64,000 nt of DNA, taken from assembly GCA_003344405.1 (NCBI GenBank), contig NOWV01000103.1, positions 1 to 64,000 on the forward strand, read 5' to 3'. This DNA comes from Trichoplax sp. H2. Taxonomy: Eukaryota. The first letter of the stretch is position 1; each line of letters begins with the position of its first letter. The notes beneath the pieces were generated by a model, which saw only the letters and a program-made list of their open reading frames with translations, had not been told where the DNA came from and did no database searches. Of this stretch, positions 1,011 to 10,700 are shown one piece after another. The position numbers and the translations under genes are program-made.

Positions 1011-4000
1011 ATGGCTACCCAAAGTGTTCGGTAAGTTCAAAATAATCAAAAAACCTATCTCGACGTTCAGTAAGTACAGTAAAGTGTTGTCATTGGAATA
1101 AGAATGCATTTGCACTGATCAAAATCAGCAAAATGTTCATGAATCCTGACCCATGTTCGGCAACCAATCGGTTGATGTTGTACAGTACTACAGGCATCCT
1201 TCACACTACTATCACACATGAGTACAGTACACTACAGTAAGTGTTAGCCAACTTTGCAAGAATTGAACTTTTCACTAAAAAAAGTGGTAGCCAACTTTGC
1301 AAGAATTGGAACTTTTCACTCCAAATTTGGCCTAGTCATTTTCGTGACTACACAGACCACACACAACAGTGTAGACCGTGTGATGGTGTCGGCCATGCTC
1401 ACAAGTTACCTGCATACTATTGCTTGACGTTACAATTACTGCAAGTACAGTACTGTACATTGACTACAGTATGGCAAACTTTGCAAGAATTGAAACTTTT
1501 CACTAAAAAAAGTGGTAGCCAACATTGCAAGAATTGGAACTTTTCACTCCAAATTTGGCCTAGTCATTTTCGTGACTACACAGAGCACACACAACAGTGT
1601 AGACCGTGTGATGGTGTCGGCCATGCTCACAAGTTACCTGCATACTATTGCTTGACGTTACAATTACTGCAAGTACAGTACTGTACATTGACTACAGTAT
1701 GGCAAACTTTGCAAGAATTGAAACTTTTCACTAAAAAAAGTGGTAGCCAACTTTGCAAGAATTGGAACTTTTCACTCCAAATTTGGCCTAGTCATTTTCG
1801 TGACTACACAGACCACACACAACAGTGTAGACCGTGTGATGGTGTCGGCCATGGCCAGCTCACAAGCTACCTGCATACTATTGCTTGACGTTACACTTAC
1901 TGCAAGTACAGTACAGTACATTGACTACAGTATGGCAAACTCCGTCAACGGTTGGCATGACCTATCATGGACGGTATGTACAGTACTATACACTGTACTG
2001 TACTGTACTGTACTCACAGGATTCAAGATCGGCCATCTAGACATCATCGAAAACATCTTCAATAACTAAATTCCTATCATGTATTGCACAAAGATTGTCA
2101 TTATACTACGTTGATCAAATTTACCAACAGTTGCTCTCTTGTGTATATACAGTATAGAGACATACTCTTTAACGTTTTGTTATTGTTTTAATGATAGGAC
2201 TAAACGTAAAAGTAAATGGGATCAACGTGCTCCCAATGTCAATGATAAAGCCAATTTAACCACAGAAAATAAGGCTGATGATAATCCACCTTCAACTGTA
2301 AATGAAGAGGATAAAGCCGCCGTAGCCAAAGCTGCTGCAGCAAGATTAAATGCTATCTTAGCTGCGAAAGGCAAGATTATCAAGAGTGAACCACCTACTG
2401 CTCTGGTTCGACTGACTACAGTATTCATTCTTCTTACTCTAGATGACAGTGTGCCATATTAAAGGAACAGGATAGGACAGTTTCATTCGTACTCTACATC
2501 ATGCTATTAAGACGTTCACAAACTAAAACATACATTATTGAACTACGTGTACTCCACCCTGACGATTTCTGTCTTGTAAAGTGTAGTAAGGAGAACGCGC
2601 TATCAGCTCATATTAATAAACCGATATCAGTATCAAACATTTACGATCGTTCTTCTACGCATAGCTACTAAAGTACAGTACAATAGCATCAATCAAGATA
2701 GTCTACGTAAATAGTGAATCGATCAGCCACTGTTCCATATTTTAAAGATGCATACTCTTACAATACAACTTGCTTCATAGACTCTCCTACAGGTATAAAC
2801 ATGTTATCAACCATTTCACTCATAATATTTAGGCTAAACCCACAACTACAAGTAGTGTGACGAATACAAGTACGAGTAGTACCTCCGATAACAATGGAAG
2901 CAATCAAGCTTCGAAATCATCTCAACCAGCAGTAATTACAGCCGAAATAGAAATTAATGACTTAATTAGCAGGTAACCCACACAAGATGTGAATTTATGA
3001 TTATGGTAATGCCGGCAGTATGCAATTATGCCTTAGATATACTGTATTTCTGTTTTTGTAGGACTATTCTATGTAAAGGCCTAACTCAGGATGATGTAAG
3101 TAATCAATGTGACAAATTTCTTTCGTAAAATAGTCAAGTCGATATAATCTCCACCATTCATGCCTTACTTTATATAGTATAGTCTAAGCAATGGAAGTTA
3201 ATGCATTCCATTTTATCAATTTTTTTACTATCAAAATTTTGTTCAACATTCAAATTCTATGCATTGTATATGCTATTTTACATAGATTAACAGACAGTCC
3301 GGTGCTGCCGTATCAACTAAAGGGCGTTACATCTCACCCAGTGAGAAACTAGGCATTGATTTAACAGTGTAAGGCTAATAATTTGACTTTTATTAATGAA
3401 TCTTAAATATTATCTGCTTGTTCTAACATTGCTCCTTCAATTACAGTAGTAACAATATTTATAGCGAATTTGTGTTTTATTCTTGCCATAAACAGAGATA
3501 GACCTTTATACCTACATATTCAAGCAGCGGCAAAGGAAAATATTCACAGTAAGCTTTTTTTAAAAGATTATTTCTTCATCGCGTTATCGCTGTAGGCAAA
3601 ATACTCTTATAGACGAAATAATTATCTTCTATTTTATATCTAGCTGCTGCTAGAATTATTTTAGCAAAGATTGCCAAAATTGATCCAGCAACTAAACCTG
3701 AAGTTAAATATACACCAGCAGATGCCGCTCCATCATCAACTGACGTCACTACTACAACAGTGCCTCTTCCAACAGGGGTAGCTAGCTTTCTTATTTTTTT
3801 GGTCAATAGAATTTTGACCTACGATACCGTACTGTGTCAAAGTAACATCGATCTTATACTTTGTTATTGTCTAGCTACATTATGTCCAGGATAAGGTCTT
3901 TGTGGGTCTAAATGACGCCCCTGCACAATTTAATTTGAAAGAAAAATTACAGGGTTCAAATGTAATAATTTAGATCTTTGCTAAATTATGACCATTATCG

Positions 4001-7000
4001 GAAGACTTCATATTCGATTAAACCAATGAATAAACTCCATATTGATATATTAAATCTAGGGTAGCTTCTTCCTGCACATAATAAAAGAAACAGGCGCAAA
4101 GGTAATAAAATTACTTATTAGTTCATTGTTGGGTCTAAGGGTTAAATAGACTAGCAACTGTCTCCTAATGTTGTTGTTGTTATTCTGTGTATAGTTTATA
4201 ATATAACAATCCTTAAGCTTCACTATTGGTATCCCAGTAGTTTGATGATATTTATGGATTTTGAACGGCTGTTGCGTTGATAGGTGCAGTTAAGAGGGAA
4301 GGGCTCTGGATACATCGAACCGACTTCCGGCAAGGAAGCCTTCGAACCGTTACACATTTATGTGAAGTATGTATAAGTGCTATTCTCGTATATAAAATAA
4401 CTATATTATGTCGTACCTGGCTTAATTCGTTCTTCAATGTACTATATGCATTTTTTTTTATATTTGTTCTTATGAACGTAGTCATGGAACATACGAAGGC
4501 CTCGAATCTGCAAAAAAGCTTTGTCAAAATCTAGTTGACACGGTAAATTAATTTACAAATTATGCACGTAGTATTGCATTCCATTGTATGCATACCATAC
4601 CGTACGTGATTATGTAGAGATAGCATAATTATAGCCTATTTATCATATGATAATTAATTTTAATATAGGTAAAGCAACAATATAAACAATTTGAAGAATC
4701 ACAAGCGAAGGCTCAAGTTCCCATAACATATCAGTCTCCTTATCCAACACCTAGTAAGAATTTTCTCGTTGGGACAATTTAATGTACTGATAATTAATTA
4801 AGCATTCTAATTTCACGATAAAAACAAAAAAACCTTAGGAGGGTAAAGAAGGTGGATAATTTCCTTCAAGAATTAATTATTCCATCGATACCACCCTCCA
4901 ATAATAGTAGCAGTTTGTTTTAGTTTACTGTCTGAGAGGCATGACTGCTTGAAATTACTACGGCTGCTAACATGTCCAATTAATAAAAATTGTAGCTTAA
5001 TTAACAATAAGGATACACACCTATGTACAGGTTACGAATTGATATTAACATTTTCTTTGAATTCTCCAAGATACAAATTATTTTGCATCTGGATATCCCC
5101 CACCTTCTCCGGTACTTTGAATATTATATAATTTTAGTTACGGTATATATCATTAGTATATATGGCATGTTATAAACCCAACAATGTGTTTTGTTCTGTA
5201 TTTTCCATGTGTATTAGGTACCTTATCAGAATATGTATGGGTATCCTATGTATGGGCAGCAACAAGTACCTCCTGCTCTTCCACCTCATATGGTAGGACA
5301 CTGTATCTGATGATGTGTAAATCATTTGTTTCTTATCTAGTACGTTTCATCAATTCATAGGTCTCACCTAATCCTTATGCCTCTCCATATGGACAATTCG
5401 GTAAGTTATGAAAATAATGCGCAATTAACATGATATATTTCGCAATAATTTGATTTTGGAATCTACTTTATGGCAAAAAAATATAGCAAATTATGGACAA
5501 TCAAATCAGTATCAAGGAAATATGTACAATAATTATTACGGTTATCCAATGGCTACTTCTACTCAAAACGAAATTCCTCAAGTGTCGCCATCAACCGTAA
5601 GTAGCCGTTCTTGTCCAATTGTCCGAGTTGGTATTCTCTTAAAAATGTTGCAACAAGTACTGTACTGTAACTTAATTGAATTATAATCTTGTATTCAAAT
5701 TTAGTAGATTAGAGAAATTTCTTTCTTTGATTTGTGATTACTGTATCATGTATTAAGTATAATATAAAAATGTAAAATGCTATTTTCATACTAGACCGTA
5801 AATCAAGAAGAGCCACCGGCGAAAAAATTAAAAAATGAAGAACCAAATAGGTAAATTTCGTTGGGTTGTGTAAATTACTCTTAAAAATTTGAAAAATTAA
5901 ATCAATCGATTTCCAATTACAATAGTAGTTCAATTGCGGAAGATTCCAGTGAACTCCCCCAAGATATCGAAAAAGTATGCTGTAATTAGATAGTGTAATA
6001 AATAAAATTGATTGGATTTCGAAGTTAAATGTATTAAATTTTCCTATCTGATTGTCCCAACTATTGTAGATGCCTAATCTACCTGATTATACCAATACTC
6101 TAAACGCAATAGGGAAGGTATAATATGACTAACGGCTTCTTAAATTTTCAGAAATTTCCCACAATCCGTTGCAGGGATATGGTGCCATTATATTATTGTA
6201 CTAACGCGAAATTTTTTTTGCTTTACTTTATTACTTGTTGGCTTTGTTTTTCGCCTATGTAATTGATAGGATGAGATTTCGCAGAAAGTAGGGAATAAAG
6301 CTATTGACGTGCCAGATCCATTTGGATTATTAGGAACTGGTAAATCTAATAGTAAACCAAAATCATCAAGACAAAATACTGAAACATCAGCAATGAAAGA
6401 TCGAGATTTAATGCCTCCGCCAGCATTTCTTCCTGTATCTAATCCAATAGGTAATGGTTTGTTTGAAAATAATTTCGCATTAGACAAATTTCATACATTC
6501 ATTGAAGTTTCTTTGCGATAAATTACCGGACGTGAAAAAGATGTAGCAATTTTGTATGGCAAAAGAGATAGTATAAGATGACAATTTAACAATGATATTT
6601 TAATTTCAACTGAAATTTTGCACCGTATTTTAGCAAGTCATTAATTTTTTTACAAATACTATTTCATATTCTTGGGAGTCTAAATGGTACATAGAATCCG
6701 TACAAGAACTATCTTGAAATTTTACGTATATTTTAATAGTTAAATTGATTTATCTGCTCGTGTTTTTATCTAATCCATGGTTTATTTTATTCTTTATGAC
6801 TTCTTTTCTTCCTTAATTTCATACAATTTTGGTGCCACGTGATGTCTCGCCCCCATCAACAAATACCAACTGGACTAACAATCATACGTAATTAATTTAC
6901 TAATGTCAAATTTGTTTTGTATTATTGGTGTTGTTTATTGAAATATAGCTCCTGGAAACACTAAAATCCAAGCCTCCAATGGTTTTAAATCTACCACTAA

Positions 7001-7160
7001 GCAGAAGAACTCAACAGGTGAAAGTAGTAAATCAGGGCTGTTGTCTTTAGCCTCTTACGGTTCAGATTCTGATGAAGAATCTTCCGACAGTGCAAGCGCA
7101 CCAGATGGTAATCGCTTGCCATTTTGGGCTGCACATGATTATAAAAAGGCAACCGAATAG
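1011..7160 (+). CDS. KHDC4: KH domain-containing protein 4 (BLOM7/KIAA0907), multi-exon
   Basis: Exon 1 1011-1030 (MATQSV-CG|gtaagt) splices in phase to 2198 ([10 protein letters not shown]...[14 protein letters not shown]). Later exons give [79 protein letters not shown] and terminal LPFWA...TAG at 7158-7160. All match recalled KHDC4 motifs. Confidence 0.95.
1247..1941. repeat. 228-bp tandem repeat, about 3 near-identical copies, in KHDC4 intron 1
   Basis: CCAAATTTGG recurs at 1321, 1549 and 1777 (period 228). Each unit carries the subrepeat ACTTTGCAAGAATTG(G/A)AACTTTTCACT twice, with minor variants. Confidence 0.95.
4835..4975 (+). ncRNA. SCARNA4: Box H/ACA scaRNA, SCARNA4 (ACA26)-like, guide for U2 snRNA pseudouridylation; in KHDC4 intron 4754-5070
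   Basis: Hairpin 1 GGAGGGT(4838)...ACCCTCC(4899). H box ATAATA 4901-4906. Hairpin 2 TAGCAG...CTGCTA with a TGAG (CAB-like) loop at 4933-4936. ACA at 4970-4972. Pocket AAGAA (4846-50)/GATAC (4887-91, 14 nt from the H box) is complementary to U2 GUAUC-UG-UUCUU. TACTAC (4956-61, 14 nt from ACA) is complementary to U2 GUAGUA. Confidence 0.85.
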
Positions 7161-7757
7161 TGTAAAGCAGTTGATTTTTAGATTGTCTTATAGTATATTT
7201 ACGTTAGCCTTCATCATAGTCATTCATTTCTAATATTCGTTACTGTATTGTATAGCAGGTAGTAAATAATGTCGTAATGTATCATAAATTTCGTGACTTG
7301 ACATTGCTATAAATTAACTACTTTTTCATCAACATAATAGAAAATAAATATCATTTAGTATTTGTAATTTGAGCGATTGCTTTTCTTCCAACCTGGAAGA
7401 TTGACTGATTGATAAACAAATACATATGTGATGAATGCATTGAGAGAGACATGAATATGTTATGCGAATATATCATTTAATCAAGTAATTTTGCTACATC
7501 ATTATCGTAATATAAAATATTTCGAATAAAGAATTTACGTATTTGACAGATTATGCTGTTTTGTTTATTACATTGTGTAAATTTAATAATAAGCCTAATT
7601 TTGGCCTATAAAAATATACATAGTGAAAAATAAACTCTAAAATCAGAAACTTGAATTTATAATGTCATGATTCAGGCATTTAATATACAATATAGTACAC
7701 AAACTATGAATCTATAATATAAAATATTATGTTCTATTCTATAAACTTTTTACGGAA

Positions 7758-10700
7758 TCATGAAGTTGTTGATGACAGCATCTTAGCAACTGTATCGTTC
7801 TTCTTTTCTGTCTCGGTCAAGTGATTCTTTCATTATAAATCGAATTCATTTCATGTAAGCATTGTGGTCGAAGTGAAGTTATGAAAAATTGAAATAGGAA
7901 TTATATTTTTGAAGAAATACTTTTCAAAATTTGTAATCTACCGAAAGTAGGCGAATGCCTGTTAATAAGTGATAAGACTTACCCGCCAGAGAATAACTTG
8001 GTTATCCACCCCACATGATACAAAAGAAAATTCATGACAATTGAGGAGTTTCTATCATTTAGATTGAAGCAAAGTTAATAAAACTGTTGTAAGCTGGTTT
8101 ACTTGGCAACTATCATAAAGAGTAATATCAAGTTTTCCCAACTTCTATTCCCCCGGCATGAACGGTACAATCTCCAATTAAGACGGGTGGTCCGTAGCAG
8201 GTTTTAGGACCGAGGAGACTAAAGATGATTTAATAGAAGTAAGAAATGTTTATTTTTTCGAAATATACCATGTACTATGTTATTAACAGTCCTACTACTG
8301 TCAAGGTAGTACCTGCTGCCTAAAAACTTTCTTACGCCAGTAAATTTCTTAATGGTATCATCTTTAATATCTAATCAAGGAATATATTAATCATTTAAAC
8401 CAATTTTATGAGTACCAGTGTAATACTTGTCCAACAAGAATCCTCAACTTTAGACCTACTAGCAAGTTACTATATTCAACCCAAACTAATATACCAAATC
8501 TCACCAATTGCGCACGACCATAATCTTACAGACCCGTCTTGTGAACTTGTTACTAAATACCCTCTAAAATATGGGGAAATAATTGATTTGTTTAGGGATA
8601 CAAATAGTTAAAATACGTACAAATAGAGTACGTATAGTCTTCAATAAAATAATATGCCGAAAATCAAGTTCAAAGTTTTCTTTTTAACGAGGGATAAATC
8701 GATTTCAAATTAATGTCACACGTTATACTTACAGTGTTGATAGAAAAGCGAGACTAGTTACTTTCAAAGGATGAGCATTTACCACACCCGTCAGGGTAGT
8801 CCCTAATTTGATAGTAGCAATACGCGTATCATCATTTTATATCATGGAATTACATCGTATATTAATCAACTAGTAACCTCGCCCAGTATGAAACAAAAAA
8901 AAGCCATTTCCAACTGCAGCAAAAAGAAATTCCTATAATATAGGTATGAAGGAAATTTCAATTCGTTCGAATTAAAATTATCAGTATGGAGGTTACAATA
9001 TATCTTTATCGACTTGATTCATTACATTCTCTAAGCTTAGTAATTCCTGGACACTGTATGGGAAATCATGAAATTGGCTATCTTCTCGTTTATAGGTTTC
9101 ATGATTATTCAAGATACAGGTAACTTCAAAATTATCGGCTGATTCTGGTATAGACCAAATAACAACTGAGCCATCCAAGGAAGCGGAAGCAAAGCAAGTA
9201 TCTGATGAAATAATGTAGATGATAGCCAAGATAGGGGTACGAATAGTTTACTTAGAACCAGTAAAAATTTATAATAGCAATAACTTTAGAATTAAAATGA
9301 ACCTTAGCTTACGATCTGCCTAATTTACCTGATATCTTTAGAAGGTGTCGAATATGTTCGGGATGTGAGGTTTTAAGAGCATATCTGTGGCGTAGGATAA
9401 CTCGACAATTATTTCCATCAATAAATTGTATTTGGAAAATTTCTATTCGTTTAAATCAAAAATTAGAGGCATTATGGTTATCATAAAATATTTTCTAGTG
9501 CAAAATGTGAAGTGATTGTAATTAATCTTTATATTTGCCGAAAGAATGACTACACAAGTGTAATATATTTGGGCACATGACTTACGTAACTCATTGTCGT
9601 CAGAAGCAGCGATCAAGAATTCTCTTCTCACAATTAACAGACTATGAATATCAGCTAAGGTTAATAAGAAAACAGAAGTGTTCTGTTAACACTTTTATCA
9701 TATTGGGAGTCAGTAACGGACAAGATAGAAGCAGAATTAGGCTTACAATGTAGATTGCTTGTCATATCCATGTCATGTATTGAAAAGCCATGGTAGGTAA
9801 ATACATTAAGTCCACCGCCGGCAGCACATACGACGTTTTGGTCTTGAATGTTAATAAAAACCTTGAGTAAAAAGTACATCAAAATGAGATATTATTACAT
9901 AATTATATGTACGATTTTATAGGCCATACGCGTATACTACAATTAAATCGATTTCATGACCACTCACTTTAATAGAGCCTATTAAGGATTCAACATGTGT
10001 CATTAAACGTCCTTTTTCCAATGACCAGAACTGATATCAGCAGGGAATAATACATTTTTCTAGCTCAAGAAAATCTCTATTTTTACATAGTAATTTTCAT
10101 TTTTTTTCGTAGGCAACATCTAGTATTAACTGTATACCCATATTGACTGTTATAACAATCATCTATTCTAGTTAGGTTAATAATAAGTAATCTGTTACTG
10201 CATAAAAGAGTGGAAATAAGGCTACCATTATACTATATCGCTTAATTAAAGCATGAAATATCACAAAATTGAAATGCATGCAGTATAATAATTGTTATAA
10301 TCAGATAAAGTTGTGTGCATATAATATACACAGTTAGAAAAAAAGTATAATAAACGTGGGTTCTACTAGTATTCATTGATCGAACGAGCTCACCATTTTA
10401 GGGTATCTAATACAAAGACACTCGTATATATATATATTAGGTAGGATACACAAACTGATTTATCGGACGATCCCGTAATTAACACCTTGCTTTCGTCCAC
10501 CACAATCATACTTGTTATAGGTCTAGTATGCTGCTTTAAGTGATGTAGTAAGATGCCATCCTATAATATGATTATCGAATTATGTCAAAAAAAATGATTT
10601 GTGAACCATAGCCGACTAGCATTAGAATAATTTGATCTTATTTCACGATCATTTCATTGCTTTAGCTAAAAACAGTGGGTACAATCGGAGTATAGTTAAT

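Follow-up and report, generated by a model that had tools for sequence, protein, structure and literature searches.

The window analysed here, a 64,000-nt stretch of the Trichoplax sp. H2 genome to which all positions refer, contains on its forward strand a gene whose product corresponds to the T. adhaerens protein TRIADDRAFT_54683, named KH homology domain-containing protein 4 in UniRef. One exon of this gene scores 37.5 bits on Pfam PF22675, and the best relatives of the protein are the KHDC4/KIAA0907 proteins of coral, amphioxus and vertebrates; judged by its sequence, the gene is the Trichoplax orthologue of KHDC4, which we take to be a pre-mRNA splicing factor gene. Spliced contigs of two RNA runs (X5 and X6) join position 4753 to position 5071, bearing out a 317-nt GT..AG intron that an earlier note on this DNA, made without database searches, had proposed. 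Within this intron lies a candidate box H/ACA scaRNA (Table 1), which is single-copy within the 64-kb window; the other introns of the host gene (window positions 2000-8000) yielded no further snoRNA-like match better than E 5. The note had also claimed that vertebrate SCARNA4 resides in the same host gene, and this holds: besides the orthology just described, the human SCARNA4 host is listed as KIAA0907/KHDC4 (PMC6023535 Table 1; PMC6466398 Table 2), and a sauropsid-like KHDC4 contig, L005, contains a true SCARNA4.

Table 1. Features of the host gene and of the candidate RNA, in window positions
Feature	Position	Strand	Description and basis
Trichoplax intron at the vertebrate SCARNA4 position (...PLPTG / LHYVQDK)	3778..3874	+	97 nt, empty; sequence, exon map, L005 comparison
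Upstream exon (...YPTP)	4669..4753	+	contig joint 4541/4668 with 'cut +1'; tblastn of P0001
Host intron	4754..5070	+	317 nt, GT..AG, phase 1, 27 residues after conserved DTV motif; spliced contigs X5, X6; phase from reading frame
Candidate box H/ACA scaRNA	4835..4975	+	141 nt; 81 nt from 5' splice site, 95 nt from 3' splice site; fold and RF02667 alignment
Hairpin 1 lower stem, 5' strand GGAGGGU	4838..4844	+	pairs with ACCCUCC 4893-4899 (fold)
Pocket 1, 5' strand AAAGAA	4845..4850	+	AAGAA 4846-4850 complementary to UUCUU in U2 motif
Hairpin 1 upper stem and 13-nt loop	4851..4886	+	4851-4861 paired with 4875-4886 (fold)
Pocket 1, 3' strand GAUACC	4887..4892	+	GAUAC (4887-4891) complementary to U2 GUAUC; starts 14 nt before H box
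H box AUAAUA (ANANNA)	4901..4906	+	within hinge
Hairpin 2	4908..4969	+	lower stem UAGCAG(UU) / (GG)CUGCUA
CAB-box-like UGAG	4933..4936	+	hairpin 2 tip
Pocket 2, 3' strand UACUAC	4956..4961	+	complementary to U2 GUAGUA; starts 14 nt before ACA; no matching 5' strand, half pocket for U39-equivalent
ACA box	4970..4972	+	directly after second stem; 3 nt before proposed 3' end 4975
Downstream exon	5071..5111	+	spliced contigs and tblastn of P0001

Read along the forward strand, 4835-4975 has the order hairpin, H box, hairpin, ACA and 3-nt tail. Its unconstrained fold consists of two hairpins of 62 nt, both interrupted by an internal loop where one is expected, and has a minimum free energy of -37.8 kcal/mol (z = -2.92), with none of 200 shuffles folding as well. 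Of the features of the H/ACA class, an H box in the hinge and, in pocket 1, a target-matching pocket at 14 nt from its box are present; the feature of the scaRNA subclass, a CAB box (ugAG) in a terminal loop, is found in hairpin 2 only, the loop of hairpin 1 being devoid of UGAG. In the unconstrained fold the U of this UGAG is drawn paired to an A, leaving a GAG triloop, and the lower stem of hairpin 2 takes a second register, UAGUAGC/GCUGCUA. The hairpin-H-hairpin-ACA structure with a UGAG loop described in the earlier note was recovered in every element and at the same positions, as was the 14-nt spacing of both 3' pocket strands, GAUAC to the H box and UACUAC to ACA. We also considered a third hairpin with a later 3' end at an ACA near 5018 and rejected it, as 4976-5023 folds at only -3.0 kcal/mol.

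Against a 15-nt U2 motif, which was quoted in the earlier note rather than read from Trichoplax U2 and which Trichoplax U2 presumably carries, pocket 1 forms 5+5 Watson-Crick pairs at 14 nt from the box and exposes the U41-equivalent, in agreement with the proposal that AAGAA/GATAC places this very residue. In a structure-aware scan, a site was accepted if the box followed the 3' strand by 14-16 nt, if no fewer than 4+4 pairs and 9 pairs in all could form with the 15-nt motif, and if an adjoining upper stem and a lower stem each measured 5 bp or more. With both strands of the window scanned, exactly one site satisfied these rules, the candidate itself. When H or ACA boxes were allowed, 9 of 60 simulated composition-matched windows contained one match (0.15 per window); restricted to H boxes, the scan gave 19 matches in 400 simulated windows, a single one of which also had the second hairpin and ACA. 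The complete two-hairpin architecture is thus expected by chance about once per 400 windows of such composition. Loose guide matches without stems occur by the dozen in the window. For pocket 2, inspection by eye found no register adjoining an upper stem in which the 5' strand pairs with U2, and a pairing scan returned only non-adjacent 4-nt matches to U2. Alternative registers against U37 and U39 were rejected, since none had its 5' strand next to an upper stem; the caveat of the earlier note that the 5' strand of its TACTAC/U39 pocket pairs poorly was correct.

At gathering scores, an Rfam search of the window returned no family. The covariance-model check proposed in the earlier note fails: SCARNA4 (RF00423, gathering score 60 bits) gave no match at E ≤ 10 even in a 401-nt search, nor did SCARNA15, and the positive control for RF00423, the SCARNA4 of L005, scores 89.9 bits. 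The best of 4227 families in this local search was RF02667 (PsiU2-38.40.42), with 24.3 bits and an E value of 0.031 in 401 nt that rises to 0.46 in a 6-kb search; being 64 bits short of its gathering score of 88 bits, the match would not stand genome-wide. It extends over the whole model (1-136) and falls exactly on 4835-4975, and no other Rfam family aligns in this way from end to end.

Like Drosophila PsiU2-38.40.42 (pugU2-38/40/42), whose guide activity is reported as verified in Xenopus extract and yeast (PMC3884663), the candidate has the build of a two-hairpin H/ACA scaRNA, and the Drosophila consensus pocket ACAAGAA/GAUACAA stands opposite its own AAAGAA/GAUACC at the U41-equivalent. 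Unlike this model, it lacks an AGAAC 5' strand in the 3' pocket, and the Drosophila RNA is hosted by bur (PMC3884663), not by the KHDC4 orthologue. With vertebrate SCARNA4/ACA26 (RF00423, clan CL00019), the candidate shares the host gene KHDC4/KIAA0907 and the same 5' pocket (consensus UAAGaAg/GAUACaa on a GGaGg/cCuCC stem). SCARNA4 is reported as verified for U2-41 only, with a weak, non-functional U39 pocket in its 3' hairpin (PMC5733568), and the human and Xenopus RNAs as active only at the U41-equivalent (PMC5733568, PMC3884663); of the two U2 targets that the earlier note had assigned to SCARNA4, U41 therefore stands, while U39 is, by that account, no longer an accepted target (PMC5733568). 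This non-functional pocket parallels the half pocket of the candidate, which differs from SCARNA4 in giving no usable pairwise alignment with it (MAFFT) and in occupying another intron of the host gene. SCARNA15/ACA45 (RF00426), of the same clan as SCARNA4, is described in non-eutherian vertebrates as directing its 5' pocket to the U41-equivalent and its 3' pocket to the 39/37-equivalents, as is its C. elegans orthologue C50C3.14 (PMC5733568); in contrast, the candidate has neither a SCARNA15 match nor a functional-looking 39/37 pocket. The same division of labour between 5' and 3' pockets characterizes this group of guides and has been tested for those of Xenopus, Drosophila and C. elegans (PMC5733568, PMC3884663). 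A functional analogue, likened by function and not by sequence, is yeast snR81, the H/ACA guide for U2-Psi42, whose deletion strain has served as test bed for every animal guide named in this paragraph (PMC5733568, PMC3884663).

A metagenome scan reduced 340 pattern matches to 21 KHDC4 loci, most of them cDNA-like or ending before the relevant intron. One locus, L004, is a distant second KHDC4 gene that contains, in an intron at the Trichoplax position, H/ACA-like RNAs related to the candidate. The intron has the same phase as in Trichoplax and lies 26 residues after QTV, compared to 27 after DTV. Hairpin 1 of the candidate aligns with its L004 counterpart at a score of 42 (shuffles 23.1 ± 4.3; 0 of 2000 reach 42), with 11 of 11 shared pairs kept and one G-C exchanged for U-A, and its GGAGG/CCUCC stem is common to L004 and to the Rfam consensus lines of both SCARNA4 and SCARNA15. 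A model of hairpin 1 built from the candidate and L004 gave four matches at E ≤ 10 over the window and the 21 loci (146,921 bases): the two sequences used to build it, the candidate's reverse strand, and L004:873-938. L004 carries a tandem duplication of candidate-like RNAs within KHDC4. Among Rfam families, the L004 relative of the candidate matches SCARNA15 best (27.4 bits). A loose match in L013 near 2101 was dropped as a TACTAC-rich low-complexity stretch, and 41 pattern matches in prokaryote genome contigs included no relatives.

The L004 RNAs are devoid of a U2-41 pocket, their 3' strand being AGUUGUUGA and pocket scans giving no match. It is therefore conceivable that the candidate is a real H/ACA RNA whose working target lies in rRNA or in a different snRNA rather than in U2, so that its 5+5 pairs with U2 would be incidental or a relic. 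Besides the missing GAUAC strand in these relatives from the equivalent intron, the lack of convincing U2 pairing in pocket 2 fits this explanation, as do several Rfam scores: the second L004 RNA is nearly as good on SNORA47, an rRNA guide (23.6 bits), as on SCARNA15 (27.4 bits), and the true SCARNA4 in L005 also matches SNORA47 weakly (18.7 bits), suggesting that the 5' hairpins of these families are alike. Further observations were counted against a U2 guide scaRNA, namely a guide duplex of only 5+5 bp, the sub-threshold RF02667 score, the missing SCARNA4 and SCARNA15 matches and the hairpin 1 loop devoid of UGAG. However, it would be rare for a 10-nt bipartite guide of random sequence to match one particular 15-nt stretch, correctly spaced, at a U known to be modified, the pocket strands match both the Drosophila guide reported as experimentally verified and the SCARNA4 consensus (PMC3884663, PMC5733568), and a UGAG in the terminal loop suits an snRNA guide. 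We consider a target other than U2 unlikely on these grounds.

Over the candidate, run X5 has a contig from 4724 to 5100 (depth 10.9) that is unspliced across the whole intron, and run X6 has one from 4849 to 5024 (depth 5.2) that ends 49 nt beyond 4975; both runs also have separate spliced KHDC4 contigs. Since the contig ends do not coincide with those predicted, the contigs could be derived from pre-mRNA or DNA. Most other intron bins are without depth in X5, with 4.48 in bin 5169-5219; in X6 the same bin has 9.44, and the remaining intron bins are without depth. As contigs cannot show RNA ends or levels, and gaps in their cover prove nothing, we regard those over the candidate as a weak hint of RNA. 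In run X4, several introns are covered at similar depth, a DNA-like pattern. Over 1501 nt, the likewise DNA-like run X1 shows 8 base differences and 3 indels relative to the window, none of them within 4835-4975; about one would be expected there, so this absence of variation is not informative.

That the RNA contigs ignore the predicted ends would also be compatible with an AT-rich intron folding in H/ACA-like fashion by chance and giving rise to no stable RNA. The sub-threshold Rfam score, with an E value of 0.46 in as little as 6 kb, and the commonness of stemless guide matches point in the same direction. Nevertheless, we judge such a coincidence to be very unlikely, considering that the full architecture appeared in one of 400 simulated windows, that the candidate beats all of the 200 shuffles in folding, and that it lies in sense orientation within an intron, typically spaced from both splice sites, in the very gene that harbours the vertebrate counterpart. 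That hairpin 1 resembles an RNA from the equivalent intron in another organism, to a degree reached by none of 2000 shuffles, argues further against chance.

We thus propose, with a probability of roughly three in four, that 4835-4975 on the forward strand is an unannotated, intron-encoded H/ACA scaRNA guiding pseudouridylation of the U2 U41-equivalent. It would probably represent a U2-Psi41-type scaRNA, whose RNA class and target are both known, in a new occurrence in a placozoan. From this we infer a stable RNA with these ends, its protein binding, its localisation and the modification itself. The RNA would be transcribed within the KHDC4 pre-mRNA and freed from the 317-nt intron after splicing, with exonucleases trimming it back to a bound dyskerin/NOP10/NHP2/GAR1 core, and the UGAG loop of the 3' hairpin would direct it to Cajal bodies via a TCAB1/WDR79 orthologue. 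In the pocket of the 5' hairpin, GAUAC would pair with U2 GUAUC and AAGAA with UUCUU, leaving the intervening UG unpaired at 14 nt from the H box, where dyskerin would turn the unpaired U, which corresponds to U41 in vertebrates, to U42 in Drosophila and yeast and to U43 in C. elegans, into pseudouridine. The 3' hairpin would serve as the obligatory second H/ACA domain and carry the CAB box, and its pocket, with only the UACUAC half, is probably weak or inactive at the U39-equivalent, as reported for human SCARNA4. The telomerase RNA of T. adhaerens is reported to retain a box H/ACA domain, and most telomerase RNAs of basal metazoans to retain a CAB box (PMC8480181), suggesting that the required machinery is present in the lineage.

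In L005, the one vertebrate-type contig from which we took the vertebrate intron position, SCARNA4 lies between the ...PFQSG and MHYVQDK exons. The Trichoplax counterpart of this intron, at only 97 nt, is too short for an H/ACA RNA, and the candidate intron lies five introns downstream. Downstream of SCARNA4 in L005 (5190-7775) there is no H/ACA match, so that a possible counterpart of the Trichoplax host intron would be empty there. The comparison of host intron positions, proposed as a check in the earlier note, accordingly places the candidate outside the vertebrate SCARNA4 intron, and the note's inference that a guide RNA stayed in the intron of its gene through deep animal evolution goes further than the findings: the shared gene stands, the shared intron does not, and common descent is a matter of interpretation.

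Considering these positions, one can ask whether an RNA that works as described reached KHDC4 by independent capture of a mobile guide, rather than by inheritance from the ancestor of SCARNA4. The empty intron at the SCARNA4 position speaks for capture, as do the lack of a meaningful MAFFT alignment between candidate and SCARNA4, the residence of the Drosophila functional equivalent in the bur gene, as reported in PMC3884663, and two coral KHDC4 contigs (L016 and L017) that contain no candidate in their introns up to residue 320; these contigs end about 570 nt past the exon for residues 298-320, before the orthologous coral intron. On the other hand, arrival in the same gene out of roughly ten thousand is unlikely by chance, the order of pockets is the same (U41-type 5', decayed U39-type 3'), and the GGAGG/CCUCC basal stem is that of the SCARNA4/SCARNA15 clan consensus. 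In addition, the tandem duplication of such RNAs within KHDC4 of L004 makes copying into another intron, followed by differential loss, a simple route. We put independent capture only slightly short of an even chance. That both guides descend from a single ancestral one hosted by KHDC4 is plausible, though unproven. We propose tentatively, at somewhat less than even odds, that KHDC4 has carried a U2 branch-site guide of the SCARNA4/SCARNA15 clan since before the placozoan/bilaterian split, and that within-gene duplication and differential loss shifted its intron, leaving the copy after the KH2 region in Trichoplax and L004 and the copy before it in vertebrates.

To our knowledge, hardly any guide RNAs for spliceosomal snRNAs have been charted outside bilaterians. 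A 2009 survey of Trichoplax ncRNAs reports three H/ACA candidates, makes no mention of scaRNAs in the part of the article considered here, and describes the putative host genes as not conserved in human (PMC2655684). The suspicion in the earlier note that the RNA may be unannotated agrees with that part of the survey, in which we found no annotation of the candidate; its supplements may list further H/ACA candidates (PMC2655684). With RNA class and target already known, the claim made here is modest in kind; what makes it valuable is how far it reaches phylogenetically, together with the host-gene question. If the candidate is what we propose, guided pseudouridylation of U2's branch-point-recognition region and CAB-box targeting would predate the placozoan-bilaterian split. 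If common descent is true as well, KHDC4 and its guide would be among the oldest partnerships of host gene and guide RNA known, and would be an exception to the reported lack of conservation in human of Trichoplax snoRNA hosts. The sharing of KHDC4 also provides a concrete, testable example of the time over which a guide RNA can remain with a functionally related host, and of whether guides move between the introns of one gene.

The candidate guide RNA at 4835-4975 (+) lies in an orthologue of KHDC4, as had been proposed from the sequence alone. The first coding exon led to one protein, TRIADDRAFT_54683 of T. adhaerens (P0001, 613 aa, 96% identical), which UniRef names KH homology domain-containing protein 4, and tblastn of this protein on the window recovered the entire gene at about 2196-7157 with few substitutions, which assigns the window to T. 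adhaerens or a very near relative. The KHDC4/BBP-like KH domain (PF22675) was found in the exon at 4284-4376, at 37.5 bits versus a cut-off of 30. Of 8000 scored candidates, 223 proteins were related to P0001 at E <= 1e-10; the top relatives, taken from the best 120 of these 223, are coral, vertebrate and amphioxus proteins called KHDC4 or KIAA0907, all with PF22675 and PF23469. An alignment of 12 sequences has both KH regions in common, along with SKWD near the N terminus and, at the C terminus, an acidic-serine tract with PFW. The first large KHDC4 intron contains about three tandem copies of a ~228-nt unit (1241-1888), visible among the listed ORFs as one open frame that recurs. Elsewhere in the window, a long low-complexity stretch at 375-960, several frames of which translate to CTVQYSTVQY-like peptide repeats, suggests a simple-sequence repeat.

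The intronic stretch was found in nine sequencing runs, four of which were compared over 4200-5700. X1, with even depth over everything, looks like DNA, and X4, covering several introns at similar low depth, looks DNA-like as well. X5 is recorded as RNA, and X6 is RNA because its contig is spliced; contigs of both join six GT..AG introns, and their joint of 4753 to 5071 confirms the claimed 317-nt host intron. Over the candidate, X5 has an unspliced contig (4724-5100, 376 nt, depth 10.9 versus 76-243 for its spliced contigs) and X6 a separate one (4849-5024, 176 nt, depth 5.2 versus 160 for its spliced contig). These are no more than a weak hint of intron-derived RNA: neither contig has the boundaries predicted for the candidate, and RNA ends or abundance cannot be read from contigs.

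The complete order of hairpin, H box, hairpin and ACA described in the earlier note is present, and an unconstrained fold of the candidate recovered both hairpins (MFE -37.8 kcal/mol, z = -2.92; matched by 0 of 200 shuffles). The spacing was also as described: 14 nt separate the start of GAUAC from the H box, and the same distance separates the start of UACUAC from ACA. The window holds one copy. A second GAUAC, with ACACAC directly 3', occurs at 5012-5020, ~40 nt past the candidate's ACA, and is taken as chance, since no hairpin lies next to it (-3.0 kcal/mol for the fold of 4976-5023).

Elements of the candidate H/ACA RNA in the KHDC4 intron
Feature	Position	Strand	Basis
Hairpin 1 basal stem GGAGGGU/ACCCUCC	4838-4844 with 4893-4899	+	sequence, fold
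Pocket 1 5' side AAAGAA	4845-4850	+	internal loop
Pocket 1 3' side GAUACC	4887-4892	+	internal loop
Hairpin 1 upper stem, 13-nt closing loop	4851-4861 with 4875-4886	+	fold
H box AUAAUA in hinge, fits pattern ANANNA	4901-4906	+	sequence
Hairpin 2, 62 nt	4908-4969	+	fold
UGAG, tip of hairpin 2	4933-4936	+	sequence, fold
Pocket 2 strand UACUAC	4956-4961	+	sequence
ACA, then three bases to end	4970-4972	+	sequence

Both pockets were compared with the 15-nt stretch of U2 that the earlier note quotes. The two strands of pocket 1 are complementary to this motif, GAUAC to GUAUC and AAGAA to UUCUU, leaving the intervening UG free, so that the proposed placement of U41 is borne out. The unpaired U would be the equivalent of vertebrate U41, a numbering consistent with PMC5733568 and PMC3884663. 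In pocket 2, the single strand UACUAC is the complement of GUAGUA; in registers with a two- or three-nucleotide gap, the U2 bases that come next find no partner in a 5' strand adjacent to an upper stem, and the sole 4-nt matches reported sit in the lower stem or H box. Pocket 2 is at most a half pocket for the U39-equivalent, in line with the poor 5' strand already conceded. SCARNA4 of human and Xenopus acts on the U41-equivalent only, and the authors judge the U39 pocket too weak (PMC5733568).

If stems are not required, loose guide matches abound, and the window has dozens of them. A strict scan called for a box at 14-16 nt; for guide pairing of 4+4 or more, 9 pairs or more in total and no more than one G-U; and for two stems, each 5 bp or longer, the upper one adjacent to the pocket and the lower one with its end at most 3 nt from the box. 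On both strands of the window it returned one match, the candidate site. Simulated windows had matched dinucleotide composition, kept only approximately because they were built from reshuffled transitions; when either box type (H or ACA) was allowed, one match each came from 9 of 60, and with H boxes only, 400 gave 19 matches, one of which also had a second hairpin and ACA.

Rfam returned no family at gathering score over the 64-kb window, and the proposed check with the SCARNA4 model failed: in a permissive search of 4700-5100, neither SCARNA4 (RF00423) nor SCARNA15 (RF00426) matched at E <= 10. The top of five matches was RF02667, the Drosophila scaRNA PsiU2-38.40.42, which aligned over its full length (model 1-136) on exactly 4835-4975, with the model pocket strands opposite the candidate's. 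It scored 24.3 bits against a family cut-off of 88 (E 0.031 in 4700-5100, 0.46 in a 6-kb search), and is not independent of the earlier observation, as both largely rest on the same pocket and boxes. The remaining four were C/D models (E 4-8), taken as noise.

The host of scaRNA4 is listed as KIAA0907/KHDC4 (PMC6023535 Table 1 and PMC6466398 Table 2), as had been stated for human; the candidate shares the host gene of vertebrate SCARNA4, but not its intron. A KHDC4-alignment scan gave 21 KHDC4 loci from metagenome contigs. One of these, L005 (7775 nt; nearest to bird and turtle KHDC4), carries a true SCARNA4 at 4749-4877 (89.9 bits versus a gathering score of 60), flanked by an exon ending ...PFQSG and one starting MHYVQDK. 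At this position Trichoplax has an intron of 97 nt (...PLPTG / LHYVQDK; 3778-3874) that is empty, and the candidate lies five introns further downstream, so that the suggested comparison of intron positions went against correspondence. The L005 introns downstream of SCARNA4 gave no H/ACA match. The empty intron keeps an independent capture of a guide by KHDC4 plausible, as do the missing covariance-model match and the different host of the Drosophila guide, in a comparison drawn from the Trichoplax, L005 and L004 introns. The candidate and the L005 SCARNA4 gave no meaningful pairwise alignment. The Rfam SCARNA4 consensus agrees with the candidate in its pocket strands (UAAGaAg / GAUACaa) and basal stem (GGaGg/cCuCC), whereas both 5' pocket strands of the L005 copy deviate from it despite the high score. 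This copy may have lost its U2-41 pocket, and such a loss would be in keeping with the reported presence of this pocket in SCARNA15 of non-eutherians. In a coral locus, L003, a 1.3-kb insert with a tRNA match (1218-1290, 38.9 bits versus a gathering score of 29) interrupts an otherwise cDNA-like KHDC4 contig. Just 3' of the last sampled coral KHDC4 exon, ~220 nt of L016 (8540-8760) look like a long inverted repeat; on each strand they gave sub-threshold matches to several models of miRNA precursors from plants and animals.

Another locus, L004 (1214 nt), encodes KHDC4 residues 226-336 free of introns; its identity to P0001 is 62%, and its distance from vertebrates is about the same. Its coding run stops at 721, followed by GTAAGT. 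This intron is in phase 1, 26 residues past QTV, and the Trichoplax host intron in phase 1, 27 past DTV (phases read from frames). Within the L004 intron lie two H/ACA-like RNAs in tandem. The fold of the first (873-1012) consists of a hairpin, H box AUAGUA, a further hairpin and ACA, and this RNA scored 20.4 bits on R1, a model from hairpin 1 of the candidate and L004; the second (1066-1213; H box AUAGCA, ACA at 1208) scored 27.4 bits on SCARNA15 (E 0.0031, 315-nt search) and 23.6 on SNORA47. The two have in common a basal stem GGAGGU/ACCUCC, then UAUAG, and the first has UGAG near the first-hairpin tip. Global alignment of hairpin 1 between the candidate and the second RNA scored 42 versus 23.1 +/- 4.3, reached by 0 of 2000 mononucleotide shuffles, and at full length 66 versus 49.7 +/- 6.0, reached by 11 of 1000. 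A MAFFT alignment of this pair kept 11 of 11 drawn pairs in both; one pair goes from G-C to U-A and another from U-A to U-G. The structure was drawn from the same two sequences, and with only two the shuffle control is uninformative (246/500). The 5' side of the L004 pocket, UGAGAA, could pair with the U2 bases in question if one G-U is allowed; its 3' side, AGUUGUUGA, has no fit to U2, and U2-pocket scans of L004 found none. The equivalent intron thus retains structure and boxes but not the U2-41 guide, and the U2 motif fits none of the four pockets of the L004 RNAs.

According to PMC5733568, SCARNA15 targets positions 39 and 37, and also 41 in non-eutherian vertebrates; the triple guide of Drosophila and C50C3.14 of C. 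elegans are counted as its counterparts, and in Xenopus and C. elegans a 5' pocket serves the U41-equivalent. The Drosophila guide, verified in yeast and Xenopus extract, sits in a bur intron (PMC3884663). A Trichoplax ncRNA survey, in its accessible portion, has U17, an uncertain U71 and one novel H/ACA RNA, with putative host genes stated as not conserved in human and no occurrence of "scaRNA" (PMC2655684). A box H/ACA domain is present in the telomerase RNA of T. adhaerens, and a CAB box in most telomerase RNAs of basal metazoans (PMC8480181). Among the titles listed on Trichoplax snoRNAs, placozoan scaRNAs, and SCARNA4 with KHDC4/KIAA0907, and in the passages covered, we found no description of a placozoan scaRNA.

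Most simply, judged by its sequence and fold, the candidate would be a real box H/ACA scaRNA guiding pseudouridylation of the U2 U41-equivalent, with a putative CAB box and a decayed U39-type pocket in hairpin 2. The claim that a guide was kept here across deep animal evolution retains the shared host gene, but is weakened by the other intron and the lack of a SCARNA4 model match; we give common descent, as one old guide lineage resident in KHDC4 and moved via within-gene duplication, a probability of about 0.4. The same pocket order, the basal stem common to the candidate and the SCARNA4/SCARNA15 clan, and the L004 relatives in a Trichoplax-type intron favour such a lineage. RNAs of this kind are already known; what would be new is their occurrence in a lineage without an earlier annotated member.
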